8,509 nucleotides of DNA. It comes from a virus. Its lineage: Duplodnaviria > Heunggongvirae > Uroviricota > Caudoviricetes. The notes beneath the pieces were generated by a model, which searched no databases, was not told where the DNA came from, and was given only the letters and a program-made list of their open reading frames with translations. The stretch is from IMG/VR virus record IMGVR_UViG_648276647_000011; one strand, given 5' to 3'. Shown piece after piece: positions 3,187 to 8,509 of this stretch; within the stretch, counting starts at the first letter, position 1, and each line of letters starts with the position of its first letter. The translations under genes and the position numbers were made by a program.

Positions 3187-5856
3187 ATGAAATCTGACAT
3201 CAGAAAAGAGATTATTAACCGTCTTATCCGTGATTACAACTTCAAAGAAGAAAATAACTACCTCCGGTATGGTGTTTGTCCGCAATGTGGAAAGAAAGAG
3301 TTGTTTACCAGCCTTGAAAGGCCGTACATCGTACACTGTGGGCGCGAAAATAAATGCGGTACAGACCTGCTGACCAAAGAACTTTACCCGGATGTGTTTT
3401 CATCATGGTCAGATCGTTATATCAGCACGAAAGACGAGCCATATGCAGCGGCGGCAGCTTATCTTCAGGAAGCGCGCAATATTGCTGTGGGGCCACTGAA
3501 GGGCGCATTTACTCAGGAGCGATACCAGGACAAGGAAAACGGCGAACAGGCCGCTACTGTGCGTTTTACGCTGGCTGACGGCGTGTGGTGGGAGCGCATC
3601 ATAGACCGGCCGGAACGTTTCGCGCGTAAGGCGAATTTTTCCGGCAGCTACAAGGGGTTGTGGTGGGCTTATCCGGGAGCTGATTTAAGCAAGGCCAACG
3701 AAATCTGGATTTGTGAGGGCATCTTTGATGCCATCAGCCTTAACCAGAATGGCATTGCAGCCGTTTCTGTCATGTCTGCCGTGAATTATCCTGATAAGGC
3801 GCTGGAAGAACTGGCAAAGCTGTGCGGAGATAATCCCCGTCCGGTTATTGTGTGGGCGCTGGATAACGGGCGTGCGGGTGAGCGTTACGCGAAAAAACAT
3901 TCAGAACGCAGCGCCGAAGATGGCTGGAGAACGGCGGCGGCGTTACCGGGTAAAAACAGCAATAAACGCGACTGGAATGATTTACACGTCGCCGGAAAGC
4001 TGCGTGGCCATGATGTGAAAAGATACCGTCATTACGGTGATTTATTGCTGGCGAAATCTCCGAGAGATAAGGCGCTGATAATATTTTCCTTTCGTGAGCG
4101 GAAGGAATTTCATTTTACTTTTGATAACCGTGTTTTCTGGTTCAAACTGGACATTGAGCGCTATATGAAGGCTGTTGAGCGTGCCAAGAATGAGCGAAAT
4201 GTTGATGAGGATGAAGCGCGCAAAATTGCACTTAAGGAATCTGGTGCAGTAAAAGAAATCGCAAACTGTAACCCAGCGCCGCTTTATTACATTCGAAATA
4301 ATGACACGGATGAAGCATGGTATTACTTCCGTGTTACGTTCCCGGATGGTGCTACGGTGAAAAACACCTTTACATCAGGACAATTAACATCCTCATCTGA
4401 ATTTAAAAAACGCCTGTTACACGTGGCAAAAGGCGGTATTTATACTGGAACGACTACGCAGCTTGACGCATTAATAAAAAATGACCTTCCCGCAATAAAA
4501 GAGGTTATTGGTCAGGATTTTATCGGATACAACAAGGCGATTGGGGCATGGCTGTTTAATGATATTGCTGTTTACAAGGGAAAAACTTATGAAATCAATG
4601 ACGAGGATTATTTTGAAATTGATGGCATAAACGCAAAACCATTAAGCGAAAAACCCACATTACAGATTAACTACAAAAAACCGGATGAGTTTACAGAGTC
4701 TTGGGTGGAAGATCTCTGGCTGGCTTTTGGTGAAAAGGGAATTATTACCCTGGCTTTCTGGTTGGGCTCCCTGTTCAGCGAACAAATCCGAGATAAAGAA
4801 GAATCCTTCCCCTTCCTTGAAGTCACCGGGGAGCCCGGAACGGGTAAATCAACATTGATTGATTTTTGCTGGCGGTTGTGCGGTCGTGACAACTATGAAG
4901 GCGTTGATCCAACCAAAGGATCAGAGGCGGGCTGGAAGCGTACCTTTGGACAGGTCGCCGGATTACCTGTTGTTCTGATTGAAGCGGACCGGGGAGACAA
5001 TGCGCAAAAAAGAGGTGCGTTTGACTTCGATAACCTGAAAAGTCTCTATAACGGCGGTGGTATCGGCGTTCGTGGTGTTAAGGCCAACAATAACAACACC
5101 TATGACCCGGATTTTAAGGGCGCTATCGTGATTGCGCAGAATGCGCGGGTAAACGCCTCTCCGGCAATTATTGAGCGCCTGATACGTATATACACCGATA
5201 AAAAACGCCATTCACCTGATACCCGCCTGGCGGCGAGACGGCTGGAACTTTACCCCGTCGAGAAGGTATCTGGGTTTATTCACCGAGCGGTAAGTCAGGA
5301 ACGGGCGATTATGCAAACGTTCCTAGAAGTATCTCCAGCTGAAACGGAACGCCTTTGCGGATGCGAAAATATTCGCCATCCCCGCATCGCTAAAAATCAC
5401 GCACAACTTATCGCGCTGGTCAGAGCGCTGAAATGCGTTATTGATATCCCGGATGAATGGCTTGATGCCACATGTCTGGAACTGGAACAAATGGCAACAG
5501 CGCAGGTTAAAGCGGCGGCGGCTGATTTACCGGAAGTGATGGAGTTCTGGGAGGCGTTCGACTTCCTGGACGGCATAACAAAATACGGTGTAAACCACTA
5601 CGGCAAGGGATGCCGTGAGGGGATTGCTATCAGTATTCCGCAACTGGCACAGGCTGCCGCCATTCACCGCGTGGAGATCCGAACTGACCGCGAAATGATT
5701 GAGTTGCTCGGAGCCGGACGTTCCCGACCTTTGACAGGCCGCAAAACCATTCGTAGTGAGGTGTCCAGACAGGCAAACGCCGGAAGAGGGGTCGCCGAGG
5801 CCAGAGAGCCGGAAGTACTGAAATGCCGGATATTCAGTTACAAGGAGGGGCGCTAA
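3187..5856 (+). CDS. phage/plasmid primase-helicase of the P4 alpha type: N-terminal zinc ribbon, TOPRIM primase, P-loop NTPase (helicase)
   Basis: Long ORF. Cys cluster CPQCG...HCGRENKCG (nt 3277-3360). TOPRIM-like ICEGIFDA (nt 3709-3732) and LDNGRAGE. Walker A GEPGTGKST (nt 4828-4854). ATG 3187 with SD GGTGGAG (3172-3178) is preferred over the track GTG at 3163, which lies inside the terminator stem. Confidence 0.88.
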   Translation: MKSDIRKEIINRLIRDYNFKEENNYLRYGVCPQCGKKELFTSLERPYIVHCGRENKCGTDLLTKELYPDVFSSWSDRYISTKDEPYAAAAAYLQEARNIAVGPLKGAFTQERYQDKENGEQAATVRFTLADGVWWERIIDRPERFARKANFSGSYKGLWWAYPGADLSKANEIWICEGIFDAISLNQNGIAAVSVMSAVNYPDKALEELAKLCGDNPRPVIVWALDNGRAGERYAKKHSERSAEDGWRTAAALPGKNSNKRDWNDLHVAGKLRGHDVKRYRHYGDLLLAKSPRDKALIIFSFRERKEFHFTFDNRVFWFKLDIERYMKAVERAKNERNVDEDEARKIALKESGAVKEIANCNPAPLYYIRNNDTDEAWYYFRVTFPDGATVKNTFTSGQLTSSSEFKKRLLHVAKGGIYTGTTTQLDALIKNDLPAIKEVIGQDFIGYNKAIGAWLFNDIAVYKGKTYEINDEDYFEIDGINAKPLSEKPTLQINYKKPDEFTESWVEDLWLAFGEKGIITLAFWLGSLFSEQIRDKEESFPFLEVTGEPGTGKSTLIDFCWRLCGRDNYEGVDPTKGSEAGWKRTFGQVAGLPVVLIEADRGDNAQKRGAFDFDNLKSLYNGGGIGVRGVKANNNNTYDPDFKGAIVIAQNARVNASPAIIERLIRIYTDKKRHSPDTRLAARRLELYPVEKVSGFIHRAVSQERAIMQTFLEVSPAETERLCGCENIRHPRIAKNHAQLIALVRALKCVIDIPDEWLDATCLELEQMATAQVKAAAADLPEVMEFWEAFDFLDGITKYGVNHYGKGCREGIAISIPQLAQAAAIHRVEIRTDREMIELLGAGRSRPLTGRKTIRSEVSRQANAGRGVAEAREPEVLKCRIFSYKEGR

Positions 5857-5858
5857 AC

Positions 5859-6862
5859 ATGCCGATCAGAAAGATGCATGATGGGCGGTGGCTGCTCGAT
5901 ATCAGGCCATGCGGACGTAAAGGGAAGCGCATCAGAAGAATATTTGACAAAAAATCGATAGCTACAGCAACTGAACGGTACATCATAGCGAACGCCGAAA
6001 AGCGCGAGTTTATACAGGGCTATCGTGACCGGAGAACGCTTAGCGATTTACTGGAATTGTGGTGGGTCTATCACGGTCAGCACAGGCGAAAGGCAAACAC
6101 GGATAAACAGCAGCTTGGCAAAATTATTAATGAGCTTGGAGCTGACATGTTTGCGGTGGAACTCGACAAATTAAAAATCATTGCATGGCGATCGCAGAAA
6201 ATTGCAGAAGGATTAAAGCCGTCCTCAGCAAACAGATACATGAACAGATTATCGGGGATGTTTACAGCCCTGAAAAAGATCGGTTTGTGGGATGCAGAGC
6301 ATCCGGTTCGTGGTATTCCTGTTCTTTATGTAAAGCAGCGGGAAATGGCCTTTTTATCAAAAAACGAGGTCACATTGTTGCTTGACGGGCTGAATGGAGA
6401 TCAACGAAGGGTTGCGCTCTTGTGTCTTTGTACCGGAGCCCGCTGGAGTGAGGCCAGCAGATTGTATGGAGAGCAAATAGTTCATAACAGAATAACGTTT
6501 CTGGAAACCAAAAACGGTAGAAAAAGAACGGTGCCTGTGTCGCAGGAAATATGCGATGCCGTAAAAACAAAAGAAACCGGGCGACTGTTTGATGTGAAGT
6601 ACAGAGAGTTTTGCCGGGCATTAAAAAAATAAAACCCGATTTACCGAGGGGGCAGGCTGCGCATGTATTGCGGCATACATTCGCCAGTCACTTTGTGATG
6701 AACGGTGGCAACATTCTTGCGCTACAAAAAATCCTTGGGCATGCGACAATTCAGCAGACTATGGCATACGCACATTTTGCACCGGATTATCTGGCAGATG
6801 CCATGAGATTTAACCCGGTAGCCAACATAGTGATCACCGAAGAAAAAGAGCCAGCAGAGTAA
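5859..6862 (+). pseudogene. int: tyrosine integrase, P2 Int-like, interrupted by a single-base frameshift at an A7 run (6623-6629); may be a pseudogene, a sequencing error or a recoding site
   Basis: Two consecutive ORFs (frame 0 5859-6632; frame 2 6611-6862) that together align without gaps to recalled P2 integrase (e.g. KPSSANRYMNRLSGMFTAL, CTGARWSEASRL, IKPDLPRGQAAHVLRHTFASHF, QTMAYAHFAPDY). Box II HxxR and the presumed catalytic Tyr (nt 6767-6769) are only in the second frame. ATG 5859 lies 2 nt after the primase stop, with AGGAGGGG at 5843-5850. Confidence 0.85.
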
Positions 6863-7110: not shown

Positions 7111-7430
7111 GGGGGGGGATGCGCAAAGCGGTTACAACGGTTACAAATTTAAAATTGCTTATTTTTGTATTATATATCAATATATTATAACTGGTCCGAT
7201 GAGTTACAATAGCGGTTACAACGCGGTTACATGTAACCGTTTTGTTAGGTTACAGGCGGTTACAGGTTAAGTTTTTAATTGATTGATAATAAAGTGCTTT
7301 TTGAAACCTGTAACCGTTGTAACCGCAGTGTAACCGCAAAGCGGTTACAAACAATATCCATTAAAATCATGTTTTTAAGTGGTGTTTTTGACTGTTGTAA
7401 CCGTTGTAACCGCTTTGCGCACCCCCCACC
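7111..7430. repeat. iteron array (heptamer GGTTACA/TGTAACC, 13 exact copies plus 1 variant) bounded by 36-bp inverted repeats; putative replication origin
   Basis: Inverted repeats 7111-7146 and 7395-7430 are 34/36 identical as reverse complements. GGTTACA at 7130, 7139, 7214, 7225, 7248, 7258, 7343 and AGTTACA at 7202. TGTAACC at 7232, 7309, 7318, 7329, 7396, 7405. Perfect palindrome GGTTACATGTAACC at 7225-7238. Hairpin TGTAACCGC-AAA-GCGGTTACA at 7329-7349. AT-rich blocks at 7147-7200, 7265-7308 and 7350-7390. Confidence 0.6.
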
Positions 7431-7653
7431 GGATTATGAGGCAGAGCCCCAAAACAACTGGTCTAACCTATAACAAAAATGCAACATCAATCATTGATTT
7501 TTTGGGGCTGTCAGTCACGGGGAGTTGCCCTGTTGTTTGGCAGAAAAATGAAGTATGTACATGCGCGGCGGGGATGGTAAAAAACGTAATACACGCGGCG
7601 CAGTTGCCATAAAAAATTTCTCAAAAGCACTCTTTTTGACGCTATTGTTCATC

Positions 7654-7680
7654 TGCACAAAAGTGCACAAATTTGCACAA
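7654..7680. promoter_or_regulatory. three direct TGCACAA repeats at exact 10-bp phasing; candidate operator or activator-binding array
   Basis: TGCACAA at 7654-7660, 7664-7670 and 7674-7680, so one helical turn apart. A fourth copy lies at 7746-7752. A 10-bp perfect palindrome CCAGTACTGG sits nearby at 7711-7720. Confidence 0.4.
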
Positions 7681-7973
7681 TTTTTTAGAGTAACTTTTTG
7701 CCCATCCGGCCCAGTACTGGCGCGCCCGGAGGGCGATTTCGTGCGTGCACAAAAAACGGTGAGTTTTTCGCGCGCAGGTGACGGGGGAACAGCACGCGTT
7801 TCAGGGGGGTAAATTACATTTTCGCTAAAGACTGCGGGAATGCCCGACCGGGTTAGTTTTATCGCCAGCCAGAGCCGTTCTTACGGCAAGAGAGAACTGA
7901 TACGGGGAATGTGACGAGTGAGCATGGGAACGGTGCGCCTGTGCGTAATACGCGGCGACTGCTGCGGGTTTAT

Positions 7974-8036
7974 TTGATACGGCCAGAGGGGGCGGCAGAA
8001 GATATAATAGGTTAAATTTCACACCAGTAAGAGGAG
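7974..8036 (+). promoter_or_regulatory. putative promoter and RBS of the ogr-like gene
   Basis: Perfect -10 TATAAT at 8003-8008. The only -35-like hexamer, TTGATA (7974-7979), is 23 bp upstream, which is non-canonical. SD GAGGAG at 8031-8036, 6 nt before ATG 8043. Confidence 0.3.
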
Positions 8037-8042
8037 CGTGAT

Positions 8043-8225
8043 ATGTCTTTCCCTTGCCCGGCCTGTGGCGCTTCAGCCCGCACCCGTGGTCGTTCGTTGG
8101 AAGAACACGAACAAAACATCTACAGAACGTATTACCAGTGCAATAATATTGAGTGTGGGGCTTGTTTTTGTACGCTTGAGTCGTTTGTACGCATTACTAA
8201 GCGCAGGAAGTCGAAAACTTCATAG
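8043..8225 (+). CDS. ogr: Ogr/Delta-family zinc-finger transcription activator (P2 Ogr / P4 Delta-like), 60 aa, single domain
   Basis: ATG 8043 with strong SD. Cys4 pattern C5-X2-C8-X24-C33-X4-C38. ARTRGRS...YRTYYQCNNIEC...FCTLES resembles P2 Ogr (ARTSRYI...ERYHQCQNVNC...F.TYES) from memory. Confidence 0.8.
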   Translation: MSFPCPACGASARTRGRSLEEHEQNIYRTYYQCNNIECGACFCTLESFVRITKRRKSKTS

Positions 8226-8275
8226 TGATTTGTATAACACAGCCAGCGAGTGCGACCGGCTGCGTTATTGCTGTA

Positions 8276-8509
8276 TTACGTCGTGTGGTTCTGGTCATTT
8301 GCCCAGGCCCACACATCCCCCGCTACATTGCGCCCGTTGCGGTCTTCTTCCTGCGTTTCCCCGGCCTTAATTCCCTGACTGATAAACATTCTGACGCACT
8401 GGGAGTAGTTCATCTCTCTGTCCTCACATATCTGATTTATTTTATGGTCGATTTCGAGCGGAATACGAATACAGCGTAATACGCATCGCATTTTCTTTTG
8501 TTTTTTCAT
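8276..8509 (-). CDS. hypothetical small protein, 77 aa, possible ribbon-helix-helix (CopG/Arc-like) DNA-binding fold; start at or beyond the window edge
   Basis: Minus-strand ORF whose ATG is the last 3 bases of the window. RCIRIPLEIDHKINQICEDREMNYSQCVRMFISQGI fits a beta-strand/helix/helix pattern. Convergent with ogr. Preferred over the overlapping + strand ORF 8225-8479, which has odd composition and no RBS. Confidence 0.4.
   Translation of the reverse strand: MKKQKKMRCVLRCIRIPLEIDHKINQICEDREMNYSQCVRMFISQGIKAGETQEEDRNGRNVAGDVWAWANDQNHTT

Follow-up and report, generated by a model that had tools for sequence, protein, structure and literature searches.

We analysed an 8,509-nucleotide stretch of viral DNA from the IMG/VR record IMGVR_UViG_648276647_000011 (Duplodnaviria; Heunggongvirae; Uroviricota; Caudoviricetes), which as a whole we call the window, and in particular a small gene of the ogr/delta type that lies close to its end. 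Our comparisons make it fairly probable that this gene encodes a functional activator and acts as the late switch of an integrative satellite of about 12.4 kb with a P4-related early and immunity region. An earlier reading of the window, made from its letters without database searches (the sequence-only reading), had described the gene as an isolated one with no sid or psu in the window. This is true of the window itself, but the stand-alone appearance without sid arises from where the window stops: in the 96-98% identical locus of Escherichia coli JP538, a gene for a Sid-like protein of 236 amino acids (aa) begins 168 bp beyond the window end, and a gene for a P2-family capsid protein comes next. 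The ogr gene by itself is ordinary, and RefSeq already names its product an ogr/Delta-like zinc-finger protein; the architecture of the satellite is a new variation on the P4 kind and is worth follow-up.

The ogr product and the adjoining Sid-like and capsid genes

The gene and the signals preceding it were placed as follows:

8043-8225, plus strand: ogr/delta-like gene (list of open reading frames (ORFs); Pfam PF04606), 60 aa, single Cys4 zinc-finger domain
8031-8036, plus strand: Shine-Dalgarno sequence GAGGAG of ogr (direct reading), ATG 6 nt downstream
8003-8008, plus strand: TATAAT, probable -10 of the ogr promoter (direct reading and comparison), ATG 34 nt downstream
7974-7979, plus strand: TTGATA hexamer, probably no functional -35, 23-bp gap to the -10

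The ORF starts with the ATG at 8043 and stops with TAG at 8223-8225. Its 60-aa product matches Pfam PF04606 (Ogr_Delta) at residues 5-51 with 43.4 bits and an E-value of 3.3e-11 (curated cut-off 26.3 bits), and its cysteines C5, C8, C33 and C38 form the pattern C-X2-C-X24-C-X4-C, that is, the four cysteines of the published Ogr-family motif C-X2-C-X22-C-X4-C (PMC3931495) with X24 in place of X22. On these matches we take the gene to be a genuine member of the Ogr/Delta family of zinc-finger activators, in agreement with the single Cys4 Ogr/Delta domain of the sequence-only reading. The longer loop to which that reading had drawn attention is real in comparison with P2 Ogr and each half of P4 Delta, which have X22, but it is not peculiar, as the Ogr of the P88-like phage PhiR44_2 also has X24 and so do the Ogr proteins of two satellite relatives. 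Its account of P4 Delta as a tandem of Ogr-like domains encoded within sid-delta-psu is correct (two domains, 166 aa), and the two halves of Delta each align separately with the 60-aa protein. The closest relatives are the Ogr proteins of P88-like phages, encoded there directly after gpD (49-51% identity), while identity is 37% to P2 Ogr and 39% to the N-terminal half of P4 Delta. All four cysteines and the conserved core to residue ~52 are intact, and the 60-aa form is kept at 92-100% protein identity in two variants of the island at different integration sites. A word-seeded homologue search with Ogr returned near-identical E. coli proteins only, and a sequence search of the PDB found no solved structure of any Ogr-family protein.

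The 236-aa gene and a 423-aa capsid gene lie directly past the window in JP538 and in five more contigs. The 423-aa protein is a P2-family major capsid protein (PF05125, E-value 2e-72) that is only 33-39% identical to any phage capsid, and a capsid scan of species genomes returned one close relative only. Relative to P2 gpN, the 423-aa protein (JP538 locus L001, 16387-17658) has an N-terminal extension of ~85 aa; this extension has a coiled-coil-looking stretch and could be a built-in scaffolding domain.

The 236-aa protein gave no BLASTP match to Sid, Psu or gpO, the E. coli member itself matched nothing in Pfam or the PHROGs, a word-seeded search with it returned near-identical E. coli proteins only, and single members of the Sid-like family searched against viral contigs found nothing. 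An exhaustive HMMER search identified a family of 236-245 aa in E. coli, Salmonella, Klebsiella, Citrobacter and Edwardsiella. Aligned by hhalign, the profile of this family is collinear with P4 Sid (244 aa) with an E-value of 3.5e-5 to 4e-5 and a probability of 70-72%, the alignment taking in a conserved W...GV.TEE stretch; the same profile gave no alignment with Psu. Five of the 12 family members match PHROG 6165, which holds Sid and Psu. The AlphaFold model of the 236-aa protein reached a mean confidence (pLDDT) of 49.5 from the single sequence and of 92.8 with the 12-sequence alignment, and its top Foldseek match among 350,542 PDB chains was 7jw1_E, the Sid chain of the P4 procapsid, over the full length (241 columns, TM score 0.48, probability 0.98, E-value 0.068), with Psu at rank 4. 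Judged from the profile, the PHROG matches, the model, the gene size and the context together, the 236-aa protein is very likely a remote homologue of Sid. The sequence-only reading had recommended inspecting the downstream sequence for sid- and psu-like genes; the former was found in JP538 and its relatives, and psu was found in none of the related loci nor anywhere in the island.

The same module recurs in other bacteria. Four further loci, each from a different subfamily (Klebsiella, Salmonella and two from E. coli), all have a primase and a P2-type integrase. Their Ogr_Delta proteins range from 60 to 98 aa and their P2-family capsid proteins from 393 to 497 aa, each locus also has a small gene and a Sid-like gene, and cargo comes after the capsid gene; a tRNA gene lies beside two of the four. 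The order ogr, small gene, Sid-like gene, capsid gene is kept in E. coli, Salmonella and Klebsiella, with Sid-like proteins only 24-40% identical; in one of the four loci ogr is inverted and the primase belongs to a different type, yet ogr adjoins the Sid-like gene. The Klebsiella relative has a cos site nearer that of P2 and an Ogr with X22, and the E. coli and Salmonella relatives have a P88-type cos and X24. This covariation of cos type and Ogr type is as expected if each lineage tracks its own helper. A toxin-antitoxin pair stands after the capsid gene both in L001 (MazEF, 17702-18294) and in the Salmonella relative L144 (RelB/ParE, 11223-11778), which suggests that this end of the island is a slot for variable cargo or defence genes. 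Among 5426 complete E. coli genomes the module was matched in 57, and in 56 of these the match covers at least 80% of the module.

Late-type dyads, the ogr promoter and a clustered palindrome

The late promoters of P2 and P4 carry a dyad of the type TGT-N12-ACA (PMC3931495). Activators of the Ogr/Delta family are characterised by zinc binding, by dependence on the alpha subunit of RNA polymerase and by action on such a dyad near -55. Upstream of the Sid-like gene we found a T[GC]T-N12-ACA dyad in four lineages, at 81, 82, 93 and 113 nt (all such distances being measured from the dyad centre to the ATG), and the dyad of P4 Psid lies at 81 nt. By our own calculation, a dyad of this kind would arise by chance within 135 nt with a probability of ~0.07 per lineage. 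Both late intergenic regions of PhiR44_2 (2 of 2) carry TCT-N12-ACAACAAAA, and one E. coli satellite lineage has the dyad TCT-N12-ACAACAAAC. In the locus L146 (8318-9000), which has a primase of the D5_N type, ogr and the small gene stand on the strand opposite to the Sid-like gene, and the common intergenic region contains a TGT-N12-ACA dyad, an arrangement that resembles the divergent P and O promoters of P2.

Upstream of ogr itself, the sole TTGACA-like hexamer is TTGATA, and the 23-bp gap between it and TATAAT was accurately described in the sequence-only reading (it is 24 bp, with an extra G, in the 98% identical JP538 copy). The lack of a usable -35 was likewise confirmed, as our scan with the sigma-70 consensus found no promoter with 16-18 bp spacing upstream of ogr. 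A lone TATAAT is within chance (9 copies observed in the window against 6.5 expected); we therefore take it as the -10 of ogr because of its recurrence across ogr genes and not because of its count in the window. We compared seven ogr genes, from P2, PhiR44_2 and five satellite lineages. Six of them, from both phages and four of the satellite lineages, have a TATAAT-like hexamer with at least 5 of 6 matches 30-38 nt before the ATG. The ogr of the Salmonella lineage has only TAATAT at this distance (4 of 6 matches, by eye) and a hexamer with 5 of 6 matches 47 nt out. The -35 candidates of the compared genes all have at most 4 of 6 matches, and in the P2 record the -10 of ogr is annotated 34 nt before the ATG together with a -35 signal of only 3 nt. 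A -10 without a -35 is thus a family trait, shared by P2 Pogr and the helper-type phage, and is not evidence of a special mode of transcription in this gene. A scan of the window for TGT-N12-ACA gave two matches, which is at the chance level, and neither is close to ogr. We also considered a terminator-like hairpin at 7951-7966, which was no better than shuffled sequence.

Between ogr and the Sid-like gene lies a small gene on the opposite strand, and a second palindromic motif is clustered around both:

8276-8509, minus strand: gene of a 77-aa basic protein (RxxRIPHEID...YSQCV), candidate repressor, with homologues at the same position in five lineages
8232-8271, unstranded: hairpin between the convergent ogr and 77-aa genes, possible bidirectional terminator (fold)
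7943-7953, unstranded: palindrome GCGTAATACGC, a GTAWTAC copy, candidate operator (motif clustering)
8474-8484, unstranded: second GCGTAATACGC palindrome, within the 5' end of the 77-aa minus-strand gene (motif clustering)
8129-8135 and 8273-8279, unstranded: further GTAWTAC copies (motif clustering)

The sequence-only reading had noted a convergent gene of the ribbon-helix-helix (RHH) kind. The small gene is real, conserved and convergent with ogr, but the RHH label could not be verified: the matches of the 77-aa protein to Pfam RHH_9 and CopG are all sub-threshold (E-values 0.04-0.16), hhalign against Arc and CopG (with sequences entered by hand) was negative, and a phmmer search of the PDB gave no match. 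The hairpin between the two genes is strongest on the minus strand (-22.2 kcal/mol, z -2.99) and weaker on the plus strand (z -1.1). The motif GTAWTAC, often inside GCGTAATACGC, occurs in 8 copies within the 981 bp from upstream of ogr to the ribosome-binding site of the Sid-like gene, out of 18 copies in the whole 29.5 kb locus, and its copies flank and overlap the late-type dyad of the Sid-like gene. It is also clustered in the Salmonella relative L144 and, in a variant form, in Klebsiella, and is absent in L145 and L146. Its form in the relatives from Salmonella and Klebsiella is TGTAATACA or TGTTATACA, with half-site trimers that are the same as those of the late dyad. The 77-aa protein, being encoded in the middle of the cluster, is the natural candidate for its binder and would repress the module until a helper is active.

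Alternatively, the Ogr-like protein itself might bind the GTAWTAC palindromes and be mainly a local autoregulator or repressor rather than a classical activator of helper late genes. We consider this improbable, though it fares best among the rivals of the late-switch reading. In its favour are the TGT/ACA-like half-sites of the motif, which stand 3 bp apart, their identity in the Salmonella and Klebsiella forms with the trimers of the late dyad, and the strong clustering of the motif around ogr and the Sid-like promoter. However, known sites of the Ogr family have a 12-bp spacing (PMC3931495), a palindrome of 9-11 bp is more what one would look for with a small repressor that binds as a dimer, the gene of the conserved 77-aa basic protein lies amid the cluster, and L145 and L146 lack the motif yet have both Ogr and the dyad.

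The cos region and the island

About 250 bp upstream of ogr lies a P2-type cos, a feature missing from the sequence-only reading. It and the other landmarks of the window are as follows:

7653-7820, plus strand: cos region of P2/P88 type (82-88% identity to P88-like phages)
7777-7795, plus strand: predicted cohesive-end core GGTGACGGGGGAACAGCAC (14 of 19 positions match P2/P4 cos GGCGAGGCGGGGAAAGCAC in an ungapped alignment counted by hand)
7111-7430, unstranded: iteron array CGGTTACA in both orientations, probable replication origin (repeat reading)
1771-1852 and 1878-1965: isrK-like and C4 antisense RNA genes, within a 175-aa "Icd-like" ORF

The counterpart of 7653-7820 in P88-like Peduoviridae is non-coding and lies between the replication/moron region and the portal gene, and over 100 contigs of P2-like prophages carry the same cos core at a distance of ~1.3 kb from their portal gene. 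The core is conserved in the relatives and its flanks are collinear with the cos regions of P2 and P4, and we accordingly read the region, by homology, as the cos of the element. TGCACAA repeats at 7654, 7664, 7674 and 7746, the first three 10 bp apart, stand just upstream of the core; the satellite and the P88-like phages share them without any change, and the terminase possibly binds there. A hypothetical 90-aa ORF in RefSeq (7555-7812) runs across the cos region and is probably no gene. The iterons (CGGTTACA/TGTAACCG) lie between the integrase and cos, with a 36-nt inverted repeat at 7111-7146 and 7395-7430.

The window as a whole contains, in this order, a 350-aa ORF, AlpA, the isrK and C4 RNA genes, the Icd-like ORF, small ORFs, a primase, an integrase, the iterons and the ogr region. 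The AlpA-type regulator (PF05930) is 32% identical to P4 ORF88. The primase (897 aa, Toprim) has only a local match of 27 aa to P4 alpha and is not an orthologue of it. The order of isrK and C4 is the same in P4, where C4 matches 8420-8507, inside the ORF annotated as "cI gene product"; we take this match to be the CI immunity RNA of P4. The pair also occurs in the P4 order in the Klebsiella and Salmonella relatives, and the N-terminal part of the 175-aa Icd-like ORF is probably untranslated. The 350-aa ORF (1-1053) is present in the island variant located between gcd and hpt and absent in the other, and is possibly cargo between integrase and alpA; it matched nothing in Pfam, the PHROGs, NCBIfam or PADLOC, and PADLOC likewise returned nothing for the ORFs without a known function. 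The internal P2-type integrase (5823-6862) adjoins the primase across the family and shares up to 81% identity with the integrases of P88-like prophages.

The JP538 island, located between gcd and hpt, matches the whole window at 96% identity. Its order is integrase (at the left end), the window genes, ogr, the opposite-strand 77-aa gene, the 236-aa gene, the 423-aa capsid gene and MazEF. A second variant has the same core with a different integrase at a different chromosomal site, and both variants are 12.3-12.5 kb long. The size ratio of the island to a P88-like phage (12.4/36.0 kb) resembles that of P4 to P2 (11.6/33.6 kb). There are no structural genes in the island beyond the capsid and Sid-like genes. 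No Ash/epsilon was detected in the scanned window proteins or among the precomputed Pfam hits of the near-identical island L135, while PF10554 (Ash) is present in the Klebsiella relative and in one E. coli relative. AlpA, isrK with C4 and the primase make up an early region of P4 type. The sequence-only reading was right in placing the gene in a satellite-like element and not in a phage.

Weighing the late-switch reading, and comparison with known systems

Starting from the protein family, the cos homology, the conserved gene order, the dyads and the motif clustering, we infer the following course. With an active P88-like (Xuanwuvirus-type) helper of the P2 family, Ogr would be supplied by the satellite, by the helper or by both, would bind the late-type dyad upstream of the Sid-like/capsid operon and would recruit RNA polymerase there. 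Ogr may also switch on the late operons of the helper, as P4 Delta does. Satellite DNA, one third of the helper in length, would then be cut at the helper-type cos and packaged, presumably in small capsids. The ogr gene would be transcribed from its own -10-only promoter, as in P2-family phages, and the 77-aa protein encoded next to it is the probable repressor of the module, with the clustered GTAWTAC palindromes as its sites.

Several observations weigh against this reading. The 60-aa protein is one domain without the C-terminal tail of phage Ogr (72-86 aa), and with 29.8 bits it falls far under the cut-off of 116 of the NCBIfam Ogr equivalog NF007241; it is thus a family member and not an orthologue of P2 Ogr. 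In the window lineage, the dyad of the Sid-like gene lies at 83 nt with a spacing of N15, not N12. No late-type dyad was found upstream of ogr, so that its -10-only promoter would be weakly constitutive or need a further factor. The statistics of the Sid link are moderate (hhalign probability ~70%, Foldseek E-value 0.068). The internal integrase has lost 1 nt of an A-run at ~6617-6623 (A7 in the window against A8 in JP538) and falls into two ORFs, although it is intact in all related loci, so that the window copy may be decaying, unless this is a sequencing error. Co-residence with a helper is only suggestive: 53 genomes have full-length matches to the window end, and 19 of these have a second match to the query, compared with ~8% of the other genomes (uncorrected for clonality). 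The second match is not a second copy of the module in at least 9 of the 19, which is compatible with a resident helper; a search with the P88-like portal region matched 1146 genomes, and no satellite strain was among the 60 matches listed.

The first and fifth of these points are what one would expect if the gene were an inactive, truncated relic, in which the loss of the tail has abolished activation and the element relies wholly on the Ogr of its helper. The protein is the shortest among the Ogr family members compared (60 aa against 72-98 aa in the relatives), it scores well below the equivalog cut-off, and the integrase of the window copy is frameshifted. On the other hand, the 60-aa form is conserved in both island variants, the module is matched in 57 complete genomes, and the cysteines and core are intact; we consider a relic improbable. 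C-terminal truncations of P2 Ogr stay active.

The ogr gene, cos and the capsid gene might also be debris of a decayed P2-like prophage beside an unrelated island, with no satellite role. All three have P2-family homologues, and the integrase, frameshifted in the window, is 81% identical to those of some P88-like prophages. We regard this as very unlikely: the gene order is unlike that of any P2-like phage, identity to the phage counterparts is only 33-39% for the capsid and 49-51% for Ogr, E. coli, Salmonella and Klebsiella all have the same compact module, its ORFs intact, at an identity of the Sid-like proteins of 24-40%, no other structural gene is present, and the island size fits the P4/P2 ratio. 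Equally unlikely is a truly stand-alone activator, that is, an element without a capsid-size module whose Ogr serves the helper late genes only. Although sid and psu are missing from the window and psu from the entire island, all the related loci that we examined have the Sid-like and capsid genes no more than 170 bp past the window end, and their promoter bears a late-type dyad.

The late-switch reading can be extended, to a form that we propose only tentatively and rate at a little under even chances. In this form, ogr would be the late switch of a widespread and so far undescribed P4-related branch of satellites in the Enterobacteriaceae, which would build satellite-sized heads from their own coat protein caged by a co-evolved Sid, and in which cos, ogr, a small repressor, a Sid-like gene and an own coat gene replace sid-delta-psu. 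If so, a P88- or P2-type helper would be needed only for the portal, protease/scaffold, terminase and tail, and mutations by which a helper coat evades Sid would leave these satellites unaffected. Capsid piracy is known in textbooks from P4 and P2, and the definition of P4-like elements rests in part on their having no virion genes. The module offers a compact regulatory unit for its study, with a predicted activator, a candidate repressor with clear candidate operators, and one putative late promoter.

Compared with the Ogr of P88-like phages (PhiR44_2), the window protein belongs to the same Pfam family, has the same C-X2-C-X24-C-X4-C pattern at 49-51% identity, and is encoded behind a similar -10-like hexamer ~30-38 nt before the ATG with no good -35. 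In contrast, the phage gene follows gpD and its product has a C-terminal tail, whereas the tailless form here is encoded in a satellite-like island, beside cos and a Sid-like/capsid operon. P4 Delta is similar in being a satellite-encoded Ogr homologue beside a Sid-type gene, with a dyad 81-83 nt before the ATG of the latter. It differs in having two tandem domains in 166 aa instead of one in 60 aa, and in being encoded inside the sid-delta-psu operon, whereas the ogr of the window forms a transcription unit by itself, and an oppositely oriented gene stands between it and the Sid-like gene. A single-domain delta is also found in phiR73, a P4-like element.

With P4-like satellites in general (PMC8628076, PMC10085698), the island shares the integrase, AlpA, the isrK/C4 (CI) RNA region, a P2-type cos, a delta-like gene, a remote Sid, a length roughly a third of that of the helper, and a terminal toxin-antitoxin cargo. 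Unlike them, it has no psu or P4 alpha orthologue, no Ash/epsilon was detected in the window lineage, and one of its genes is for a major capsid protein of the P2 family, although P4-like elements, as described, encode no virion proteins (PMC8628076). At normal thresholds it has at most ~4 of the 7 P4-like core markers (a hand count, not one by the SatelliteFinder models), and on this hand count, as opposed to a SatelliteFinder run, current satellite finders would probably miss the element. Our full-text literature searches, which did not cover subscription journals, found no description of such a satellite type, and the type around ogr appears to be undescribed.

A precedent for a coat homologue encoded by a satellite is Ccm of the cos-type SaPIbov5, which resembles the capsid protein of the helper and changes the size or shape of the capsids (PMC8569155). 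SaPIbov5 belongs to another host phylum and Ccm to another capsid family, and the predicted capsid protein here is paired with a Sid-like external scaffold and an Ogr-type activator. The capsid-forming satellites (cfPICI) similarly supply the capsid protein themselves, but they have complete head modules, whereas here there are only the coat and Sid-like genes. Neither SaPIbov5 nor the cfPICI join a Sid-type scaffold and an Ogr switch to their coat genes. If our reading is true, the element would be a common enterobacterial relative intermediate between satellites that redirect capsid size (P4, SaPI) and those that form capsids of their own (cfPICI), having kept the Sid-type scaffold, added its own coat protein and split off a single-domain Ogr.

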